This document shows, one piece after another, positions 1-9,896 of a stretch of 25,014 nt of DNA. Origin of the DNA: an uncultured Chloroflexota bacterium (GTDB lineage: Bacteria > Chloroflexota > Chloroflexia > Chloroflexales > Roseiflexaceae); NCBI GenBank assembly GCA_903871975.1, contig CAIQIY010000619.1:1-25014 (forward strand), read 5' to 3'. The notes beneath the pieces are model-generated. The model saw nothing but the letters and a program-made list of their open reading frames with translations. It ran no database searches and had not been told where the DNA came from. Every line of letters starts with the position of its first letter. The stretch's first letter is position 1. The position numbers and the translations under genes were made by a program.

Positions 1-519
1 ACCAAGCCGTTTGGCTTCATGAAATTCACTCCCGGCCCTGGTCTCGGCGGTCACTGTATCCCGATCGATCCATTGTATCTTTCGTGGAAACTGAAGACTC
101 TCAACTACAATGCACGATTTATTGAGCTGGCAAGTGAAGTAAATACGTCAATGCCACCGTACTGGGTGCAAAAAGTCATGGATACACTCAATGATCATGG
201 AAAAGCGCTCCGTGGGAGTAATGTACTGGTTGTTGGTGTAGCCTACAAAAAAGATGTCAATGATGTTCGTGAGTCGCCAGCGCTCGACATCATCCATCTT
301 CTCGAAAATAAAGGGGCACATGTTACATATCACGACCCTCATGTGCCATCAATAGTCGTCGAAGAAACAAAATATGTGTCAGTCGTCGACTTTGATACGT
401 CTCTCCGTGAATCAGATTGTACGATCATTGTTACAGATCACACTGGCTACGACTGGGTTCATATCCACGGAACAGCAACATGCGTCGTTGATACACGGTG
501 GACGACGAAAAAAGTATGA
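1..519 (+). CDS. Nucleotide-sugar dehydrogenase (UDP-GlcNAc/UDP-ManNAc 6-dehydrogenase, WbpA/WecC type), 5'-truncated by the window edge
   Basis: Frame is open from base 1 (TKPFGFMKFTPGPGLGGHCIPIDP). It contains the catalytic GGHCIP motif and the C-terminal GVAYKKDVNDVRESP and YHDPHV motifs. Confidence 0.92.
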   Translation, partial: TKPFGFMKFTPGPGLGGHCIPIDPLYLSWKLKTLNYNARFIELASEVNTSMPPYWVQKVMDTLNDHGKALRGSNVLVVGVAYKKDVNDVRESPALDIIHLLENKGAHVTYHDPHVPSIVVEETKYVSVVDFDTSLRESDCTIIVTDHTGYDWVHIHGTATCVVDTRWTTKKV

Positions 520-2453
520 GCATAGTCGATGGTTTGCTGTCAGCACGGCGTTTCCATACTGCTCAACTCGTGGATGGGCGAATCTATTTCATCAGCGACT
601 TAAGCGGTCGTCTGAGTCTCTATGTCATGGATTATGGTGGAAGTATACCAGAACCATTGCTTCCACCACAGATTGCATTGCAAAACCCCGATTTGATCGG
701 CGGTGTGCCATATGCGATATTCCCGACGCTTGGCCAAATTCTGGTGATGATCGACCAGGATGGTGATGAGCACTATTTGCCGCACGTGATTCCACTCACA
801 GGCGGACCACCGCAACCAGTGTTTGCCGCGGAGCTCGAGCGCAGCCGCGTCGCTTGTGAGGCTGTCGACGTGGCTACAGGCATCGTGTACATTGCGGCAC
901 AATCGACCGAACGGCCAGAGACGACCATCATCGCGGCGCAGCTGGCGACTCAGGCATGCACCGTGCTGGCCATGCGCCCGTGGTCGTTCGAAGTTGCCGG
1001 AGTAGCGGGTGATCACCAGCGCGTCGCACTGATCGAGAGCTATACGTCGGGCGATCATGTGTTGCTGGAGTGGTCACCCGGCGCTGGCGTCGTGGTGCGC
1101 TATGGCAGCTTGAACGAGCATCGATCGCCTGAGACGCCAGTGGTGCTCAATGCGATCGCCAATTGCTGCTACACGCCGGCGAATCATGGCATGGTGTTCA
1201 TCACGGCACTCTTCGATGATTGCTATGGCCTAGGGTACATGGCGGCCGGAGCGACGACACCAGAACCGGTGACGATCGACGGTGTGCAGCACCACGGCGC
1301 AGGTGAGTTGACCGGTCTCAAGCAACTGGATGGTGATCGCTACCTGGTGAGCTACAATATCGATGGCTGTTCGTGGTGTTACGAGGCGCGTTTCGATGAG
1401 CGGCAGCGGCATTGCGCGCTGACAGCGGTGATCGTCGGGCGTGGTGCGCTGGCCGGTGGTGTCGTCGAGTCGATTGATTATGACCGTGCCACCGACCGGT
1501 TCATCGCCACGTTCTCAAGCGCCGTCGCGCCGACACAGATCGTGACCGTAGAAGGCCCGACTCGTTCCACAATCGTCCAGCACACGCGTGAACGCTTCCT
1601 CGGCTACGCCGAGGATGGCTTCGCTCCGGGCGAGGATGCATCCTTCGACTCGCACGATGGATTACGCATCTCGGCACGGTTGTATCTCCCGGCGCCACGT
1701 CATGGATTCAGTGGGCCGCGACCGCTGGTGTATTACATTCATGGTGGCCCACAGAGCCAGGAGCGGCCGGACTTCAGCTGGTTCTCGATGCCGCTGATCC
1801 AGCTTCTGACGATCGAGGGGTTTGCAGTCTTTGTGCCGAACGTGCGCGGCAGTACCGGATACGGCATGCGCTACACGACTTTGGTCGATCGCGACTGGGG
1901 TGGGGCCGACATGGCCGACCATGTGACCGCGATGGAGCATCTGAGTCGTGACCAGCGAATCGACGTGCGGCGCGCAGGCGTCATTGGTCGCTCGTATGGT
2001 GGGTACATGACCTTGATGCTGGCATCGCGGCATCCGCACTTGTGGCGTGCTGCTGTCGACATGTTCGGCCCCTACGATCTGCTCTCGTTCCTGGAACGCA
2101 TTCCGCCGACGTGGAAGCCGTATTTCCAGATTGCAGTGGGTGACCTGGTCGCCGATCGAGCACACTTGATCGAGCGCTCGCCGGCGACGCACATCGATGC
2201 GCTGCAATGCCCGTTGCTGGTCATCCAGGGGCGCAACGATCCGCGAGTCGTCGAACGTGAGTCAGCCGATCTCGTCGCACGTCTCGCGGCACTTGGCCGC
2301 GAGGTGCGGTATCTGGTGTTCGAGAACGAAGGCCATGATGTGCTCAAGTTCGAGAATCGTGTGACCTGCTATGGGGATATCGCGGCATTCTTTGGGCAGC
2401 ATCTCGGCGATGGTGATGCAGCATTGCCTCGTGCTGCGAGCGCCCTGGCCTGA
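516..2453 (+). CDS. S9 family (prolyl oligopeptidase/acylaminoacyl peptidase-like) serine peptidase, 645 aa
   Basis: HGGPQSQ, GRSYGG nucleophile elbow, QGRNDPRV (Asp), NEGHD (His), PNVRGSTGYG. ATG at 516 overlaps the upstream stop (ATGA) and is preferred over GTG 498. Confidence 0.93.
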   Translation: MSIVDGLLSARRFHTAQLVDGRIYFISDLSGRLSLYVMDYGGSIPEPLLPPQIALQNPDLIGGVPYAIFPTLGQILVMIDQDGDEHYLPHVIPLTGGPPQPVFAAELERSRVACEAVDVATGIVYIAAQSTERPETTIIAAQLATQACTVLAMRPWSFEVAGVAGDHQRVALIESYTSGDHVLLEWSPGAGVVVRYGSLNEHRSPETPVVLNAIANCCYTPANHGMVFITALFDDCYGLGYMAAGATTPEPVTIDGVQHHGAGELTGLKQLDGDRYLVSYNIDGCSWCYEARFDERQRHCALTAVIVGRGALAGGVVESIDYDRATDRFIATFSSAVAPTQIVTVEGPTRSTIVQHTRERFLGYAEDGFAPGEDASFDSHDGLRISARLYLPAPRHGFSGPRPLVYYIHGGPQSQERPDFSWFSMPLIQLLTIEGFAVFVPNVRGSTGYGMRYTTLVDRDWGGADMADHVTAMEHLSRDQRIDVRRAGVIGRSYGGYMTLMLASRHPHLWRAAVDMFGPYDLLSFLERIPPTWKPYFQIAVGDLVADRAHLIERSPATHIDALQCPLLVIQGRNDPRVVERESADLVARLAALGREVRYLVFENEGHDVLKFENRVTCYGDIAAFFGQHLGDGDAALPRAASALA

Positions 2454-2582
2454 AGCCGAGGTCAGGGCTCGGTTGATGACGGAGACGATGCGGCCGGTTG
2501 CTGCAGGCGGCGTGCTGCACAACGGCCGTGGTGCCGGTGCGTCGCGACCGATAGCGGTGACAACGAGCAAAAAGTGGGTGCG

Positions 2583-2714
2583 ATGGAGACAATACTCGCA
2601 ATCGTGCGGTACGCGTTCATCGTTGGCATCGCCATCGAAGGTGTCTTGATCGCTCGCGCGCTCTGGCGCCTCGTCAGTCGGCGGCCTGCGCATCAATCCA
2701 CGACAGATTTATGA
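2583..2714 (+). CDS. Small single-pass membrane protein, 43 aa (METILAIVRYAFIVGIAIEGVLIARALWRLVSRRPAHQSTTDL)
   Basis: Translated by hand; it is below the ORF-track size cut-off. It has one hydrophobic helix followed by basic residues, and its stop overlaps the next ATG (ATGA, 2711-2714). Confidence 0.65.
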   Translation: METILAIVRYAFIVGIAIEGVLIARALWRLVSRRPAHQSTTDL

Positions 2715-3589
2715 CACCACCATCAATCGTTTTACATATCTCAGACCTGCATGCCGGGCCGCCATTTGTCACTGCTGCGGCAGAAGGCCTGGTCGAGCGT
2801 GCATGGGTTCATAAGCCCGATCTTGTCGTGATTTCGGGAGACTTGGTGCAGAGAGCGGATAGCTCGCGACAATGGCGCATGATTCGTGAATTCATCGCCA
2901 AACTACCACAACCTCAACTCATCGTCCCTGGGAATCATGATGTTCCTTTGTATAACGTGATCAATCGTATTCTTCGGCCGATGACTACATATCAACGAGA
3001 AATTGGTGTGCCACTCAATCCAGTGATAGAATTGCCAGGAGCAGTCATTATCGGCGGAGTGACGGCACATGGGTTGACCATTGATGGGGGAATGCTGAGC
3101 AAGCGCCAGCGCCGGACACTGACAGAACTCTGGTCGCGCTATGACGATACGCGCTGGAAACTGATGGTCCTACATCATCAACTCGTCAATCCACCAGGGT
3201 ATCAGCATCGAGCAACGATGCGTGATTCTGTTGGGGTAGCACATCTACTGGAGCAATGGGGGGTCGATGTATTGCTCTGCGGGCACATTCATGTCTCGCA
3301 TGTTGGACAGACCGCGGACAGCATACCGACGCTGCAGCATGGTACCGTGATCTGTCAGAGCGGTACAACCACATCGCGGCGTGGCAAGAGTCGCGAACGA
3401 GGTGCACAGTCGTATAATTTACTCAGCATCAGTGACACGGCAATCGATATTACGCCACATGTGTACACAGCAGCGACGGCACAATTCACGCCGACGGCGA
3501 TCTACACGGTACGTCGTCGGGATCGGCGAAGCATCGAGCAGCGATCGGTTGAGGGTGTTGCAGCATCACTGGACCGCATCGCAGAATAG
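2711..3589 (+). CDS. Calcineurin-like metallophosphoesterase (CpdA/Icc-like)
   Basis: Motifs SDLH, SGDL, GNHD, LHH and GHIH appear in canonical order. Confidence 0.9.
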   Translation: MTPPSIVLHISDLHAGPPFVTAAAEGLVERAWVHKPDLVVISGDLVQRADSSRQWRMIREFIAKLPQPQLIVPGNHDVPLYNVINRILRPMTTYQREIGVPLNPVIELPGAVIIGGVTAHGLTIDGGMLSKRQRRTLTELWSRYDDTRWKLMVLHHQLVNPPGYQHRATMRDSVGVAHLLEQWGVDVLLCGHIHVSHVGQTADSIPTLQHGTVICQSGTTTSRRGKSRERGAQSYNLLSISDTAIDITPHVYTAATAQFTPTAIYTVRRRDRRSIEQRSVEGVAASLDRIAE

Positions 3590-3598
3590 CGAACCGGC

Positions 3599-5110
3599 AT
3601 GACGGCGAGCGTGCGCCTGGTGATGCTTTGGTGCCTGGTATGTGCGGCATTGTGGCCCGGAGCGGGGGCCCGTGCCGAGACGCCGGATCCACTTCGTGGT
3701 GACCAATGGAGCCTGGATCTGATCGGCGCGGCATGTGCCTGGCGTGTGGTTCAGGGAGACGCAGATGTCATCGTCGCGATCATCGACAGTGGTGTCGACC
3801 CGCAGCATCCCGATCTGGTCGGCAGATTATTGCCCGGGCGCGACTTCGTCGATGGTGATGATGACCCATCGGATGCCAACGGGCATGGTACGCATGTCGC
3901 CGGCATCGTCGCCGCAACCCTGAATAATGCCGAGGGCATCGCTGGGCTGGCGCCTGGTGTCACCATGTTGCCCGTTCGGGTGTTGAACGAACGCAACGTC
4001 GGCACAGAGTCGGCGATCGAAGCCGGCATTCGCTACAGTGTCGCGCGGGGTGCGCGGGTCATCAACATGAGTCTGGGCGCGACGCTGACGATCGCCGCCG
4101 ACCGCGAATCGACCCGGGTGCTGAACGCTATTCGCGAAGCCCAAGCTGCCGGTGCTGTGGTGATCGTTGCTGCCGGCAATGACTTTGTCCCGTTCCCCAA
4201 TGCGTTTGCCGGTGAACATCCCGACGCCATGGTGATCGCGGCGAGTGACCGGTCCGATGTCAAGGCCAGGTTCTCGAATTCGGGGCCGTGGATCGCAGTG
4301 AGTGCACCAGGCGTCGACGTCCTCTCGACGATGCCCACGTACGAGGTGTCGCTGACCAGCGGCGACGCACCCGAGTCGGAGCGCTTTCGTCGCGGTTATG
4401 ATCGACTGTCGGGCACGTCGCAGGCGGTCCCTCATGTCGCGGCATTGGCGGCGCTGCTCATCTCGGCGCATCCCGACTGGTCGCCGGCCGAGGTGCGCGC
4501 GCAGATCGAGCGGAGCGCACAGGACGTTCGCACGCGCAACCCCGGCCTCGAGATTGGCACTGGCAGAATCGATGCTTGCGCGGCGCTCGGTGGCGATGAT
4601 GCAGCGGGTGCTCCGGCGCCGGTTGCTCCACCACTCGAGTTGCGTGTGTGGGGGTTCGCCGCAGCCCAGACGCTGGCATGGCTGCTGGTGCTGGCCGGGG
4701 GTATCGTCATCGCCGGTTGGTGGTCGATGCGTCGGCGACGCTCGGGAAGTGCCGGAAGCCGGCGCGAGACACCTGGCGCGGCGCTGTCTGCTGGCCAGCA
4801 ATGGACAGTTCAGGTGATCGTGTTCGACGACGTCAGCCATGTGGTGCTCGCGCCCGGCACCACGACGATCGGCCGTGATCCTGCGTGCGTGCTCGTGGTT
4901 CACGGTGACACGAGCGTCTCGCGACGCCACGCACGATTGCTGGTGGACGAAGCTGGCCTGCAGGTCGAGGATGCTGGCAGCAGCCACGGTACGTTCGTCA
5001 ATGATCGGCGGATCACCGCGCCGCGGCGGTTGCGGCGTGGTGATGTCCTACGCCTCGGGCAGACACAACTACGCATTGGCATCGGGGATTCGCGGCACGT
5101 GTTGCATTAG
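3599..5110 (+). CDS. S8 subtilase with signal peptide, transmembrane helix and C-terminal FHA domain
   Basis: IIDSG (Asp), HGTHVAG (His), AAGND (oxyanion Asn), GTSQAVPHVA (Ser). TM segment LAWLLVLAGGIVIAGWW is followed by RRRR. FHA motifs IGRD, SVSRRHA, EDAGSSHGTFVN. Confidence 0.92.
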   Translation: MTASVRLVMLWCLVCAALWPGAGARAETPDPLRGDQWSLDLIGAACAWRVVQGDADVIVAIIDSGVDPQHPDLVGRLLPGRDFVDGDDDPSDANGHGTHVAGIVAATLNNAEGIAGLAPGVTMLPVRVLNERNVGTESAIEAGIRYSVARGARVINMSLGATLTIAADRESTRVLNAIREAQAAGAVVIVAAGNDFVPFPNAFAGEHPDAMVIAASDRSDVKARFSNSGPWIAVSAPGVDVLSTMPTYEVSLTSGDAPESERFRRGYDRLSGTSQAVPHVAALAALLISAHPDWSPAEVRAQIERSAQDVRTRNPGLEIGTGRIDACAALGGDDAAGAPAPVAPPLELRVWGFAAAQTLAWLLVLAGGIVIAGWWSMRRRRSGSAGSRRETPGAALSAGQQWTVQVIVFDDVSHVVLAPGTTTIGRDPACVLVVHGDTSVSRRHARLLVDEAGLQVEDAGSSHGTFVNDRRITAPRRLRRGDVLRLGQTQLRIGIGDSRHVLH

Positions 5111-5372
5111 GCGCCGATGCGCGCAACCGTGACTCACCACGATCGTACGATGCGTTGGCTGATCCGGGGCCTGCCCTGTATCAGGCAGTACCGCACCGAC
5201 CGGCTCCGTGCGTCAGGTAGCGTATACCCCATCCGTGAACGTGCGATCGTCCTTGCCGGGCAGCAGCGTCGAGCGCGACGAAGCAAAGCAGCAATCCGGT
5301 GCGTTGCACCGGATTGCTGGATGGAGCAGGGTCGTGTGAGGATCCGGGAGCAGCTGCACTCCCGGAGGCAGT

Positions 5373-5573
5373 TCACGAGATCGTCTTCTGAAAACAGGCG
5401 CGGTGATGGTATGTCTTGTTCCGGCGACGGCCATCCATCACCACGACCATCTCGCGGTCGTTCATGATGCGATCGCCACAATTGCCACAGGCATGGTCGG
5501 TGACGCGACCGCTGCGATCGCGTGATGTCACGTCAGTCTTCGACTTGGCTGTCTTCGTGTTCTTGCCCGCCAT
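5373..5573 (-). CDS. Small basic putative zinc-finger protein, 66 aa (CxxC...HxxC)
   Basis: GGAGGG SD 4 nt before the ATG, an extended -10 promoter about 50 nt upstream, and motifs CGNCG and YHHRACF. Confidence 0.75.
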   Translation of the reverse strand: MAGKNTKTAKSKTDVTSRDRSGRVTDHACGNCGDRIMNDREMVVVMDGRRRNKTYHHRACFQKTIS

Positions 5574-5623
5574 TGAACCCTCCAGTGCTCATGATCTGAA
5601 CGGTCGTGCCCGTCTGATGGCGC

Positions 5624-5632
5624 ATTATAGCA
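5624..5632 (-). promoter_or_regulatory. Extended -10 promoter (TGCTATAAT) for the 66-aa ORF
   Basis: Exact TGnTATAAT consensus in GC-rich intergenic DNA, correctly oriented toward the ORF. Confidence 0.7.
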
Positions 5633-6342: not shown

Positions 6343-7365
6343 ATGTTCTTCCGTCATCTGCGACTGATCGCAATGGCCTGTGTGTTGGCGGCGTGTGGCG
6401 CTGCGGCGTCACCGGCACCGACGCCGAGCGCTGTGCCGGCGCCGAGTGCGATACCTGCATCACCAACTGCGGGTGCAACGCCAACCACAGGCGCAACTGT
6501 TGCACCAGAAGCTGGCATCAGCATCACCGATGCTGCCGGCCGCACCGTCGTCGTACCAGCCAGCGCGCGGCGCATCGTGTCGCTTGCGCCCAGCACCAGC
6601 GAGATCGTGGCGTTTGTTGGCGCCATCGATCGATTGGTTGCCGTCGATGACTTCTCCGACTATCCGCCGGCACTTCAGAACCTGCCGCGGGTTGGTGGCA
6701 GCGATTTCACCTACGACGCCGAAGCGATCGTGGCACTGGAGCCCGATCTGGTGCTCGCCGCCGGGATCACGTCGCCCGATGCCGTCGGCCAGCTCGCTGA
6801 TCTCGGCCTGACGGTAGTGGTGGTCGGCAGCCTCGAGGCGAGCCTCGATTCGATCCTGACCGATATCACGCTCGTCGGCAGCTTGGTCGGTGCTGCCGAC
6901 AGCACTGCCGAGGCGGTAGCCGCGTTGCGTGAGCGGGTCGCCACTGTCCAGCGGGCCATCGCCGCAGTCGAAGGACGACCACGGGTCTACTGGGAGATCG
7001 ACGCCACGGATCCGCAGCGGCCGTACAGTATCGCGCCGGGCAGCTTCATGCATGAATTGCTGACGACTGCGGGGGGCGAGAATATCTTCGCTGATGCGAC
7101 GAATCCGTATCCCCAAGTGAGTGCCGAACAAATTGTCGACGGTGACCCGCAGATCATCGTGATGTCGAATGCTGCATACGGTACGACGGTCGAGTCGCTG
7201 CGGGGGCGCACCGGCTGGCAGGACATCACTGCAGTCCGCGACCAGCAAGTCTTTCCGATCGACGATGATCTGGTCAGTCGACCGGGCCCGCGGGCAGTCG
7301 ATGGCCTTGAGGTCCTGGCGCGGCTGCTGCATCCAGGGCAGTTCGACGGTCAGATGGCGCCGTGA
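6343..7365 (+). CDS. btuF: Cobalamin ABC transporter substrate-binding lipoprotein
   Basis: GGAGG SD then ATG 6343; lipobox VLAAC; P/A/T linker; RIVSLAPSTSEI, EAIVALEPDLV and SRPGPR class III SBP motifs; riboswitch context. Confidence 0.88.
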   Translation: MFFRHLRLIAMACVLAACGAAASPAPTPSAVPAPSAIPASPTAGATPTTGATVAPEAGISITDAAGRTVVVPASARRIVSLAPSTSEIVAFVGAIDRLVAVDDFSDYPPALQNLPRVGGSDFTYDAEAIVALEPDLVLAAGITSPDAVGQLADLGLTVVVVGSLEASLDSILTDITLVGSLVGAADSTAEAVAALRERVATVQRAIAAVEGRPRVYWEIDATDPQRPYSIAPGSFMHELLTTAGGENIFADATNPYPQVSAEQIVDGDPQIIVMSNAAYGTTVESLRGRTGWQDITAVRDQQVFPIDDDLVSRPGPRAVDGLEVLARLLHPGQFDGQMAP

Positions 7366-7419
7366 GCAGCACCGTGGCGACTGCCCGGTGGTGCGACGCC
7401 GCAATGTGAGGAGCGAGCG

Positions 7420-8490
7420 ATGCGTCTTGCGTTGCGCCGCGGGATCGGGCGACACGTGGCTACACCCGCACCAGTCTGGCCGGTGGTCCTGCTTGGCAGT
7501 GTGCTGATGACCGGTGCTGCCGGCATCGCCGTGTTGGTCGGAAGTGTCATGATCCCGCCGGCGGCGATCGGAGCGTTGTTCTGGCGCGCTGTTGCGGGGG
7601 GTGGTCACGATCCCTGGCCGGCCACCTATGCGACGATCCTGTTCGACATCCGCCTGCCGCGGGTCGCGCTGATGATCCTGACGGGAGCGGCGCTGGCGAG
7701 CTCCGGAGCAGCGTACCAGGGGCTGTTTCGCAATCCGCTGGCGGACCCATACCTGATCGGCGCTGCGGCGGGTGCCGGGCTTGGCGCGGTCTTCAGCGCG
7801 ATGCTCCGCCTGAGTATGCCTGCCCTGCCGTTGGCGGCGGTGCCGTTCGGAGCGTTCTTCGGCGCTGCGTTGACGGTGGCGGCCGTGTATGCACTCGGGC
7901 GGGTTGGCGGCGCGACGCCGGTGAGCACGCTGCTGCTGGCTGGTGTGGCATTGAGCGCCCTGCTCTCGGCGGCGACGATCTATCTGTTGCTGCGTCAGGC
8001 ACGCCAGGCGAGCTACATCTTGGCATTCCTGCTCGGTGGCTATGCCGGCGGCGGTTGGGAAGCCCCGAGCGTGGTCGCGCCGTTCGTCGTGATCGGATTC
8101 GTCGTGTTGTATCATTGTCGCCGTGAGCTGAATGTGTTGAGCTTCGACGATCATCAGGCGCAGCAACTCGGCGTCGACGTCGGTCGTGCACGCCTGCGGA
8201 TCATCATCGCTGCAACATTGATGACCGGCGCTGCGGTGGCGTTCAGCGGGCTGGTGGGATTCATCGGCCTGATCGTACCCCACATGGCGCGTCTGCTGAT
8301 CGGTGCCGATCACCGTCGGCTGCTGCCGTTGGCGGCGCTCGGTGGTGCCGCCTCCCTCGTGTTGGCCGACACCCTCGCGCGCAGCGTGGTCGCCCCGGAA
8401 GAATTGCCACTCGGTGTGATCACTGCGGTCGCCGGTGTGCCGTTCTTTCTGTGGATGCTGCGCCGCGCCCGTAGCGCAGCATTTTTCTGA
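7420..8490 (+). CDS. btuC: Cobalamin ABC transporter permease (FecCD/BtuC family)
   Basis: DIRLPRV, QGLFRNPLADPYLIG, GLVGFIGLIVPHMARL, ELPLGVIT; GAGGAG SD. Confidence 0.92.
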   Translation: MRLALRRGIGRHVATPAPVWPVVLLGSVLMTGAAGIAVLVGSVMIPPAAIGALFWRAVAGGGHDPWPATYATILFDIRLPRVALMILTGAALASSGAAYQGLFRNPLADPYLIGAAAGAGLGAVFSAMLRLSMPALPLAAVPFGAFFGAALTVAAVYALGRVGGATPVSTLLLAGVALSALLSAATIYLLLRQARQASYILAFLLGGYAGGGWEAPSVVAPFVVIGFVVLYHCRRELNVLSFDDHQAQQLGVDVGRARLRIIIAATLMTGAAVAFSGLVGFIGLIVPHMARLLIGADHRRLLPLAALGGAASLVLADTLARSVVAPEELPLGVITAVAGVPFFLWMLRRARSAAFF

Positions 8491-9266
8491 TGGACCTGCT
8501 GCGACTCAGCGCTGTCAGCATCGCATACGGCGCGCGCCAAGCGTTGCGCCACGTCAGCCTTGATGTGCCGGCTGGCGCATTGGTGGCGCTGGTCGGGCCG
8601 AACGGCTCGGGCAAGAGCAGCCTGCTCCACGCCATCGCCGGCACGGTGACGCCGCAGGCCGGGACGATTCATCTGGGTGGTATCGCATTGACGACGCTCA
8701 CTGCCACGGCACGGGCGCGCCTGGTCGCCAGTGTGCCGCAGAGTGCACGACTGGCCGAGGGGTTCAGCGTCGCCGAAGTCGTGATGATGGGCCGCACGCC
8801 ACATATCGATCCGTGGCGTGGCAGCCGCCATCATGATGCAGCGATCGTCGCCGAAGCGATGCGTGCCGCGGGCATCGAACCGCTCGCCGACCGCTGGGTC
8901 GGTCAGCTGTCGGGCGGCGAGCAACAACGTGTGCTGATCGCCAGGGCGCTGGCGCAACAGCCGCGCGTGCTGTTGCTCGATGAGGCGACGGCACATCTGG
9001 ATGTGCACCACCAGATATCCGTCCTTGGCCTGGTGCGCATACTGGCACATCAGGGGCGCGTGGTGCTGGCGGCACTGCACGATCTGAATCTGGCTGCGCT
9101 CTATGCCGACCATCTGGTGTTGCTGGCCCATGGCACGGTGCTGGCGAGCGGGCCCCCGGCACAGGTGCTGACGGCCGCGCTGATCGAGCAGGCGTTCGGG
9201 GTATCGGTGATCATCGCGACCCATCCGTTCCATGGCACGCCACTGGTCATGCTGCGGGACCGCTGA
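8490..9266 (+). CDS. btuD: Cobalamin ABC transporter ATPase (BtuD/FepC family)
   Basis: Walker A GPNGSGKS, signature LSGGEQQR, LLLDE, ALHDLN; 1-nt TGATG overlap with the permease. Confidence 0.92.
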   Translation: MDLLRLSAVSIAYGARQALRHVSLDVPAGALVALVGPNGSGKSSLLHAIAGTVTPQAGTIHLGGIALTTLTATARARLVASVPQSARLAEGFSVAEVVMMGRTPHIDPWRGSRHHDAAIVAEAMRAAGIEPLADRWVGQLSGGEQQRVLIARALAQQPRVLLLDEATAHLDVHHQISVLGLVRILAHQGRVVLAALHDLNLAALYADHLVLLAHGTVLASGPPAQVLTAALIEQAFGVSVIIATHPFHGTPLVMLRDR

Positions 9267-9896
9267 GCATGGTCGTCGGTGGCCCCCCGCCCGATGGCGT
9301 GGATGCGCCCGAGGCGGCCATCCGGCCGATGGGTCCGCCGCCGGCTCTGGCGCGTGTCATCGGCGTACCGGTGCCGGGCATGCTTGTGGCCGTTGCATGA
9401 TGCTTGTCGCACGCGCCGCACGGCTCACGACCGCCGCACACCCGGCAGCGGCCGGGCTCTCCCGCAGTAGGGCGGCACGATGCGTCTGGCCGGAGATATC
9501 GGGAGATGACTGTCGCAGCAGGCGACTCGTCGGCGCGGGCGGGACATCGACCAGGGGGCGGGTTGCACATGATCGTTCGTGCTCGATCAGGATATGTGCG
9601 ACTGATACGCCTGTGATCGACTTGCACCCCCGGTGCAGCATGGTGGCCGGATGCACGGTACGATGCCGTGTATCCGGCCTCGAGCTGCGTGTCGCCAGCA
9701 GGCTGCCACGCCGGCGGGGTGATGGCGCCGCACACCACAGGACCTTGGTCGTGCAACACCTGCGTGTGCGCCAACTGCGGGTTGGCCATACTCACGTGTG
9801 GCCAGCAGATTGCTCCGGATGGCCATCGAACCCATCGCACCGCCGACGCCCCCAATGCGCACAGTATCACGCTGCGCGAGGGCCAGCAGAGTCATG

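Follow-up and report, generated by a model that had tools for sequence, protein, structure and literature searches.

Introduction

In bacteria, FHA readers are known to put transporters such as Rv1747, division proteins and secretion systems under the control of Ser/Thr kinase signalling, and the FHA domains of the actinobacterial proteins OdhI, GarA, Rv1747 and FhaA are established readers of phosphothreonine (pThr). A protease has also been found joined to an FHA domain. A 2008 survey of prokaryotic serine protease architectures contains FHA-FHA-trypsin, which it files for Bacteroides thetaiotaomicron under signalling and metabolism, and no combination of Peptidase S8 (S8) with FHA (PMC2605481). 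PrsW-FHA forms were later read as 'signaling peptidases' by Zhang et al. in 2012 (PMC3482391). Among the membrane proteins, Rv1747 of Mycobacterium tuberculosis is an FHA-ABC-2 exporter regulated by PknF in an FHA/pThr-driven manner (PMC8339232). Here we describe a gene at positions 3599-5110 of a stretch of 25,014 nucleotides from an uncultured Roseiflexaceae bacterium of the Chloroflexota (contig CAIQIY010000619.1, assembly GCA_903871975.1), hereafter the window. This gene encodes a subtilase (S8) domain, a single transmembrane (TM) helix and an FHA domain in one polypeptide. A first, sequence-only reading of the window had not recognised this as a characterised architecture, and indeed our literature search found no paper describing S8+FHA.

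A predicted outward-facing subtilase joined to a cytoplasmic FHA domain

The gene, window:3599-5110(+), is a single intact open reading frame (ORF) of 503 aa with no internal stop. Its features are the following.

3599..5110, + strand: S8-TM-FHA gene (protein P0001), 503 aa plus stop; seen by ORF, Pfam, NCBIfam, alignment and AlphaFold2 (AF2) model
3599..3676, + strand: putative signal peptide, residues 1-26; hydropathy, with n-region Arg6, hydrophobic core and ARA/E
3764..4540, + strand: Peptidase_S8 domain, residues 56-314 by Pfam; the fold spans about 30-330
3785-3787, 3884-3886 and 4418-4420, + strand: catalytic D63, H96 and S274, invariant alignment columns
4178-4180, + strand: oxyanion N194, invariant alignment column
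3734-3736 and 4577-4579, + strand: invariant C46 and C327, alignment columns
4652..4741, + strand: TM helix, residues 352-377, then RRRR 378-381; hydropathy, flank charges and AF2
4862..5059, + strand: FHA domain, residues 422-487 by Pfam; the fold spans about 398-497
4874-4876, 4919-4921, 4928-4930 and 4985-4987, + strand: FHA residues R426, S441, H444 and H463, the last replacing the canonical Asn

Pfam assigned both domains well above threshold, Peptidase_S8 (PF00082) with an E-value of 5e-53 and 180.7 bits for a gathering score of 21.8, and FHA (PF00498) with 4.6e-18 and 65.9 bits for a gathering score of 20.7; no I9 propeptide was detected in P0001 by Pfam. By hydropathy, the N-terminus carries a signal-like segment over residues 1-25 followed by ARA/E after residue 26, the predicted cleavage site, and one TM segment lies at about 352-377 with RRRR immediately C-terminal to it. 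To place these features in their family, we aligned 30 sequences that are 48-77% identical to P0001. An N-terminal hydrophobic segment is found in 28 of the 30 members, and all 30 possess a hydrophobic segment between S8 and FHA that is richer in Lys/Arg on its C-terminal than on its N-terminal side. An AF2 model of P0001 built on this alignment (mean pLDDT 74) contains a long helix over residues 346-380 and an FHA beta-sandwich, its strands spread over 400-497 and its block-mean pLDDT reaching 88-95 over 401-490. ORF, Pfam, hydropathy and AF2 thus agree with the signal peptide, the Asp/His/Ser triad, the single TM helix with RRRR and the FHA domain as the sequence-only reading had placed them. 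The topology that it proposed is borne out as well by hydropathy, by the charge excess in 30/30 relatives and by the AF2 helix.

D63, H96, N194 and S274 are invariant in all 30 sequences, and the Asp-His-Ser order together with the oxyanion Asn is that of Peptidase S8. C46 and C327, likewise invariant, probably pair in a disulfide, which, if formed, would fit an extracytoplasmic S8 domain. Ahead of the catalytic Ser, at residues 241-270, the family has a conserved insertion of its own, about 17-30 residues long. By sequence, the solved chains closest to the S8 domain, Ak.1 protease and thermitase, score about 170 bits. A Foldseek search with the P0001 model gave thermitase (E 1e-20, 38% identity), Ak.1 and subtilisins, with 38-40% identity for thermitase and Ak.1. 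P0001 is consequently predicted to be a type-I membrane protein that holds a propeptide-less, thermitase-like S8 protease outside the cytoplasmic membrane and an FHA domain in the cytoplasm. As judged from its conserved residues, the outward-facing subtilase is probably active.

The solved FHA domains nearest to that of P0001 are those of OdhI, GarA, Rv1747 and FhaA (Rv0020c), plus ArnA. In the alignment to OdhI, the GR, SRRH and GS-x-GT elements match, and His for Asn is the sole difference at a signature position. G425, R426, S441, R442, H444, S461 and G464 are invariant in the 30-sequence alignment; the pThr-contact set is therefore kept for G425-R426 and S441-x-x-H444, with the Asn of Asn-Gly replaced by His463 or Tyr. 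The IGRD and SRRH motifs had been read correctly from the sequence, and their pThr-contact Arg, Ser and His are strictly conserved in 30 relatives. The SSHGT noted in place of SxNGT is also real; with His463 in 28/30 relatives, it characterises the family as a whole and is no local mutation. The FhaB/FipA model NF049868 (NCBIfam) matches the FHA part only, with 59.8 bits for a cut-off of 125. The cytoplasmic linkers that join the TM helix to FHA are rich in Pro. Some two thirds of them contain Tyr-x-Pro-Pro, typically PVY[T/V/A/M]PP (alignment A2), a motif that neither the window protein nor its nearest relatives have.

Conservation and distribution of the fusion

We searched a database of 5.8 billion proteins and took the best 120 matches. 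Both Pfam domains, S8 and FHA, are present in all 120, whose lengths range from 480 to 590 aa. Their source names are only 'S8 family serine peptidase', 'thermitase' or 'mycosin', and their organism labels are Roseiflexus, Roseiflexaceae and Chloroflexi. After clustering at 50% identity the family shrinks to a handful of representatives, and S8+FHA is found in 5 of the 9 closest.

The distribution was surveyed in 401 sampled Chloroflexota genomes, close S8 orthologues being those at E 1e-91 or better. Such orthologues are confined to the window's own order. The fused form was detected in 11 genomes, namely that of the window, both genomes of g2, genus g10 and all seven genomes of family f3; the g2 genomes are assigned to Roseiflexus from their near-identity to named Roseiflexus proteins, and family f3 appears to be Herpetosiphon-like. 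One carrier genome is a single contig, and closed or near-closed Roseiflexus-like and Herpetosiphon-like genomes are among the carriers. The FHA-less form was found in 2 genomes, and the remaining S8 matches fall to E 1e-62 with other architectures. A motif-based locus search in genome contigs was dominated by generic S8 motifs, with the fusion in 1 of the 80 loci listed, and provides no census.

The genome of the window is a freshwater metagenome-assembled genome of 707 contigs, 85% complete, and the stretch recurs in freshwater, river and lake metagenomes from many studies. This genome encodes a paralogue of P0001, C585:5238-6827(-), of 529 aa and about 53% identical overall. The presence of S8+FHA in all 120 best matches, in closed or near-closed genomes and in a paralogue implies that the fusion is not an assembly artefact. 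The concern raised with the sequence-only reading, homologues mostly without FHA and a fusion found only here, is thereby removed. We conclude that S8-TM-FHA proteins form a narrow family, conserved among bacteria of the Roseiflexus and Herpetosiphon types and some of the Chloroflexus type.

FHA-less relatives and the evolution of the fusion

In maximum likelihood trees of the S8 domain, FHA-less and fused forms make up one clade, with support of 100/100 in a first set and 85/87 in a wider set. The tree requires at least 3 changes of the FHA label. In a midpoint-rooted version, rooted so for drawing only, the two earliest-branching rows carry FHA, and the rows without it are interspersed among branches that have it. 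Our reading of this topology is that the FHA domain was probably gained once in the clade and then lost two or more times. A recent origin of the fusion from the FHA of an adjacent ABC exporter (L103) finds no support, the two domains sharing 34% identity over 53 residues, which is not especially close.

Close FHA-less relatives within the S8 clade are of three kinds: TM-anchored with a short tail, soluble, and fused to an NTF2-like domain (P0129, P0131 and P0125). In genome G343, an FHA-less S8 protein with a TM anchor and a short tail is still encoded behind a phosphoesterase and an NTF2-like gene, both of which are described below. In G375 the FHA-less S8 protein is soluble, and an FHA-ABC_tran-ABC2_membrane gene overlaps its stop. 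In the loci of P0131 and P0125, two further FHA-less proteases, an FHA-FHA-ABC-2 exporter gene lies directly downstream of the protease gene. The P0125 locus (L109) also has a Pkinase-TPR gene directly upstream and a second exporter gene further upstream. Overall, an FHA-(FHA-)ABC-2 exporter gene directly follows an FHA-less protease gene in three lineages and four loci. The Rv1747-like FHA-(FHA-)ABC-2 exporter neighbourhoods are the following.

L103:1502-3901: exporter neighbourhood
L107:4835-7381: exporter neighbourhood
L109:1-1091, 2308-4995 and 6886-9375: exporter neighbourhood

By its gene content, the S8 clade is thus persistently coupled to FHA-based signalling, be it by an FHA domain on the protease itself or by an FHA-regulated exporter encoded next to it. 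This exporter and kinase adjacency in FHA-less relatives is the strongest comparative support for a link to phospho-signalling.

Conserved neighbour genes

Three kinds of genes accompany the protease gene, two of them in the window itself.

2583..2714, + strand: TM microprotein, 43 aa (MET...E19...LIARA), single TM; its stop overlaps the next start (ATGA)
2711..3589, + strand: metallophosphoesterase, 292 aa, cytoplasmic; Pfam Metallophos E 3.9e-19
L002:2520-3413(-), which is G000:C585:6824-7717: NTF2-like gene beside the protease clade
L010:7455-7997: NTF2-like gene beside the protease clade
L105:3465-3875(-): NTF2-like gene beside the protease clade

The microprotein carries an intramembrane Glu. 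It aligns with 45-aa genes at the same position in two Roseiflexus loci (L010:6483-6620 and L012:6478-6615), with 16 invariant positions, and has a tblastn match in genome G295 as well.

The metallophosphoesterase contains the motifs D-x-H, GD, GNHD and GHxH. Its nearest solved structures, Rv0805/Icc and GpdQ, are weak matches (E 1e-5 to 1e-4), and its best NCBIfam model is a cAMP phosphodiesterase model with 40.6 bits, below the cut-off of 225. In its motifs and matches it resembles a class III phosphodiesterase of the Rv0805/Icc type. We also considered that the enzyme could be a PPP-type Ser/Thr (pThr) phosphatase. This was rejected on sequence grounds, as SDLHAG/GDLVQRA/GNHD stand where that type has GDxHG/GDxVDRG/GNHE and its relatives are Rv0805/Icc and GpdQ; the enzyme may still act as a protein phosphatase. 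Every orthologous S8-TM-FHA locus checked, across three families, has an orthologue of this enzyme directly upstream in the same orientation, with 41-76% identity.

Between the phosphoesterase and protease genes, all other loci examined contain a gene of about 135-195 aa encoding an NTF2-like protein; it is inverted in the Herpetosiphon-like loci. The protein is TM- or lipobox-anchored, has an outward-facing domain of about 115 aa and matches no Pfam family. AF2 models this domain as an alpha+beta cone, three helices on a curved sheet, with pLDDT >90, and Foldseek retrieved NTF2-like proteins (131 matches at E 1e-3 or better). The true start of the C585 copy is likely Met122 of the long ORF. 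In FHA-less relatives the NTF2-like domain is fused to the S8 protease itself, C-terminally in P0129 and in P0131, whereas P0125 carries it at both ends. By the domain-fusion ('Rosetta stone') argument this implies a functional partnership, and we consider the NTF2-like domain, on this comparative ground, a probable genuine partner of the protease.

The paralogue locus keeps an NTF2-like gene, with a 4-nt overlap, and has no phosphoesterase gene in the upstream stretch examined. After duplication, the window copy and the paralogue each kept a different one of the two neighbours. In a relative whose protein is 76% identical (L009), about 600 nt without a recognisable gene separate the phosphoesterase and protease genes. 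Compared with L009 and the other loci, the gap at 3590-3598 of the window looks like the outcome of a stepwise loss of the middle gene.

Outside this neighbourhood, a gene of the S9 prolyl-oligopeptidase family precedes the module (window 498-2453, + strand), as it also does on the contig of the 76%-identical relative. It is absent from the Roseiflexus loci, and is thus a lineage-specific neighbour outside the core module. ORFs downstream of the protease (window 5117-5467 and its counterparts) were rejected as partners, not being homologous between loci. A simple scan revealed no sigma-70-like promoter or terminator within the operon.

Metatranscriptome contigs from 3 libraries lie over the protease gene, and some of them span the phosphoesterase/protease junction (3589/3599). 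In RNA library X13, contig depth, which is not a measure of expression, is about 0-7 over the operon and 50-107 at 5289-5600. A separate observation concerns window 5265-5541, where metatranscriptome contigs are about 10x deeper than over the protease operon; this region coincides with a small zinc-finger-like ORF at 5373-5632.

Proposed mechanism

The sequence-only reading had suggested an outward-facing protease positioned or gated by intracellular Ser/Thr phosphorylation. We propose along the same lines that the protease is docked or clustered via phosphothreonine signalling, under inside-out control, and give this proposal about an even chance; its pThr binding, ligand, substrate and direction of signalling are deduced. 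In such a scheme, Hanks-type kinases would phosphorylate Thr on a membrane-associated partner. This partner may itself be a kinase, or it may be an ABC-2 exporter complex under FHA regulation or some other machine of the envelope. At least 11 Hanks kinases are encoded in the genome of the window, which also has several further FHA proteins, an FHA-FHA-ABC protein among them. An Rv1747-type exporter would be the obvious candidate partner, given the neighbourhoods of the FHA-less relatives and the known FHA/pThr regulation of Rv1747 (PMC8339232). The FHA domain of P0001 would dock on the phospho-Thr site, and the cytoplasmic signal would thereby set the place and time at which extracellular protease activity is recruited, clustered or released. 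The protease may act in a module with the outward NTF2-like accessory, the Rv0805-like metallophosphoesterase and the TM microprotein. More tentatively, the S8 clade, the NTF2-like domain, FHA (fused or exporter-borne) and Hanks kinases could together constitute an unrecognised Chloroflexota pathway in which Thr phosphorylation directly gates or positions proteolysis at the outer face, perhaps along with substrate export. We regard this wider proposal as possible, though the odds are against it.

Several observations weigh against phosphothreonine-directed control. The position of the FHA 'NG' Asn (463) is His in 28/30 relatives and Tyr in 2/30. No kinase gene is found in the window, Roseiflexus or Herpetosiphon loci. 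No conserved Thr ligand for the FHA domain was detected in the linkers or in the tails of the NTF2-like partners. A phospho-Thr acting in cis in the cytoplasmic linker, as in GarA and Rv1747, was rejected, the Thr not being conserved and the linker motif missing from the window protein. The Thr of 'DTG[S/P]L' in the tail of the NTF2-like partner was rejected as a general ligand, being shared by Roseiflexus and the partner of the paralogue and absent from the lipoprotein partners. Two lineages kept the protease and lost the FHA domain, which is thus dispensable in some backgrounds. As to the module, the window copy is without an NTF2-like gene, only 9 nt (3590-3598) separating its phosphoesterase and protease genes. 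When the S8 domain of the paralogue was co-folded with the NTF2-like protein encoded beside it, the median score was 0.31, the mark being 0.34, and this result weighs neither for nor against. Finally, the metatranscriptome contigs over the operon are consistent with its transcription, RNA-library contigs being no strict proof of it.

Alternative interpretations

Signalling might instead run from the outside in. The S8/NTF2-like ectodomain would bind or cleave an extracellular ligand, and a conformational change, oligomerisation or shedding would lead the FHA domain to capture or release a phosphoprotein, much as in TM anti-sigma factors whose ectodomains are protease-like. The best structural match of the NTF2-like partner, the S1C-NTF2 ectodomain of the anti-sigma factor RsgI9 (7SJY, Foldseek E 1e-5), is suggestive in this respect, since RsgI9 crosses the membrane and combines a protease-like sensor with a signalling domain in the cytoplasm (PMC12203970), and the fusion of NTF2-like domains to the protease in relatives also speaks for this reading. 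However, the match reflects the common NTF2 fold only (15-16% identity) and the protease classes differ, S1C versus S8. Moreover, the invariant triad and oxyanion residue of the S8 family point to a predicted real proteolysis, not mere binding, and FHA domains are not known to have any output activity by themselves. An outside-in sensor therefore seems unlikely to us.

Alternatively, P0001 could be an ordinary anchored degradative exoprotease whose FHA domain is a relic or a pThr-independent scaffold or oligomerisation module, as in ring proteins of the YscD/PrgH type. Yop-YscD_cpl does match P0001 above its Pfam cut-off (53.9 bits for 33.2), and the replacement of the canonical FHA Asn by His, the loss of FHA in two lineages and the S9 peptidase gene upstream in the window's lineage would all sit well with this explanation. 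Yet R426, S441 and H444 never vary, and conservation extends over the entire FHA domain in relatives down to 48% identity, which would be unexpected for a relic; FHA-ABC exporter genes, at one locus with a kinase gene, recur beside the FHA-less relatives; and the closest solved FHA domains, those of OdhI, GarA, Rv1747 and FhaA, are pThr readers. We hold such an exoprotease for improbable, inside-out control through pThr being the reading that we retain.

The sequence-only reading had compared the protein with mycosins, and a last alternative would make it a trans-encoded mycosin analogue, that is, a MycP-like protease of a Chloroflexota type VII secretion system (T7SS) whose FHA domain links it to the secretion ATPase complex. 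The T7SS mycosin model TIGR03921 is indeed the top NCBIfam S8 model (215.4 bits). The layout of P0001 is mycosin-like, with a signal peptide, an S8 domain without classical propeptide and a C-terminal TM anchor. Related genomes also possess WXG100 + EccC-like loci with their own C-terminal-FHA protein beside the ATPase: the T7SS locus of G295 encodes a protein with a C-terminal FHA domain, and such a protein adjoins an EccC-like gene in the genome of the window. The TIGR03921 score is nevertheless below the cut-off of 278.75, and no mycosin structure is among the 60 sequence matches listed or the 50 Foldseek matches listed, which hold thermitase, Ak.1 and subtilisins. The window contains no EccC/WXG100 T7SS genes; in G295 and G223 the T7SS loci (WXG100 + EccC-like) lie megabases away from the S8-FHA gene; the T7SS locus of G295 has no S8 gene; and the conserved neighbours of the S8-TM-FHA gene are non-T7SS genes. 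The sub-cut-off score, the thermitase-type nearest structures and the position outside T7SS loci show that the mycosin resemblance is architectural only (no propeptide and a C-terminal anchor), and we dismiss the mycosin analogue as highly improbable. What stands of the earlier comparison is the shared TM-anchored layout; it does not extend to the S8 domain, which is thermitase-like, or to the genomic setting, which is outside T7SS loci.

The T7SS-like loci are worth recording in their own right. In them, a pair of WXG100 genes and the gene of an EccC-like ATPase (about 1580 aa) are followed by that of a C-terminal-FHA protein; they are located at L110:12423-18009 (in G295), G000:C272:430-8685 and G000:C535. 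An EccC N-terminal fragment adjoins a Pkinase-like ORF in the genome of the window.

Comparison with known systems

The family brings no new fold or part family, and its proteins are already public under generic names; what is new is the conserved and uncharacterised combination. An extracytoplasmic protease wired directly to an FHA reader has no description in the literature searched. For inside-out control over proteolysis beyond the membrane, the S8-TM-FHA family would be a compact example that lends itself to testing. Its hosts include filamentous bacteria that glide (Roseiflexus, Herpetosiphon) and whose envelope remodelling is poorly understood. A further outcome of our analysis is the definition of an NTF2-like accessory domain of subtilases that has no name so far and could be a new protease chaperone, inhibitor or substrate adaptor.

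Thermitase and Ak.1 (S8A, thermitase group) share with P0001 the order of the triad, the oxyanion Asn and 38-40% identity. They are soluble secreted enzymes, whereas P0001 lacks a propeptide domain, carries the conserved insertion described above and continues through a TM anchor into a cytoplasmic FHA domain. Mycosins (MycP of actinobacterial T7SS) are alike in their signal peptide, propeptide-less S8 domain and C-terminal TM anchor and supply the best NCBIfam model; P0001 differs in its score below the cut-off, its position outside a T7SS locus, the FHA domain that follows its TM helix and a structure nearer to thermitase.

On the FHA side, FhaB/FipA (Rv0019c) and other small TM-anchored FHA proteins also combine one TM helix with one cytoplasmic FHA domain, although FipA, unlike P0001, is without an extracytoplasmic enzyme domain. 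Exporters of the Rv1747 type likewise place a cytoplasmic FHA reader on a membrane protein acting on the envelope, and the FHA of Rv1747 is among the closest solved. Their effector is an exporter with two N-terminal FHA domains and known phospho-regulation, whereas that of P0001 is a protease for which phospho-regulation is only deduced.

RsgI9 of Clostridium thermocellum (7SJY) resembles the S8-TM-FHA system in having protease-type and NTF2-like domains outside, one TM tether and a cytoplasmic signalling domain. Neither the protease nor the cytoplasmic domain is homologous, S1C and an anti-sigma domain standing where P0001 has S8 and FHA, and the protease-like domain of RsgI9 binds cellulose while the triad of P0001 is intact. 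PrsW-FHA (PMC3482391) and FHA-FHA-trypsin (PMC2605481) each join a protease to a phosphopeptide-binding FHA domain. Both are uncharacterised and belong to other protease clans with other topologies, and neither paper lists S8+FHA.

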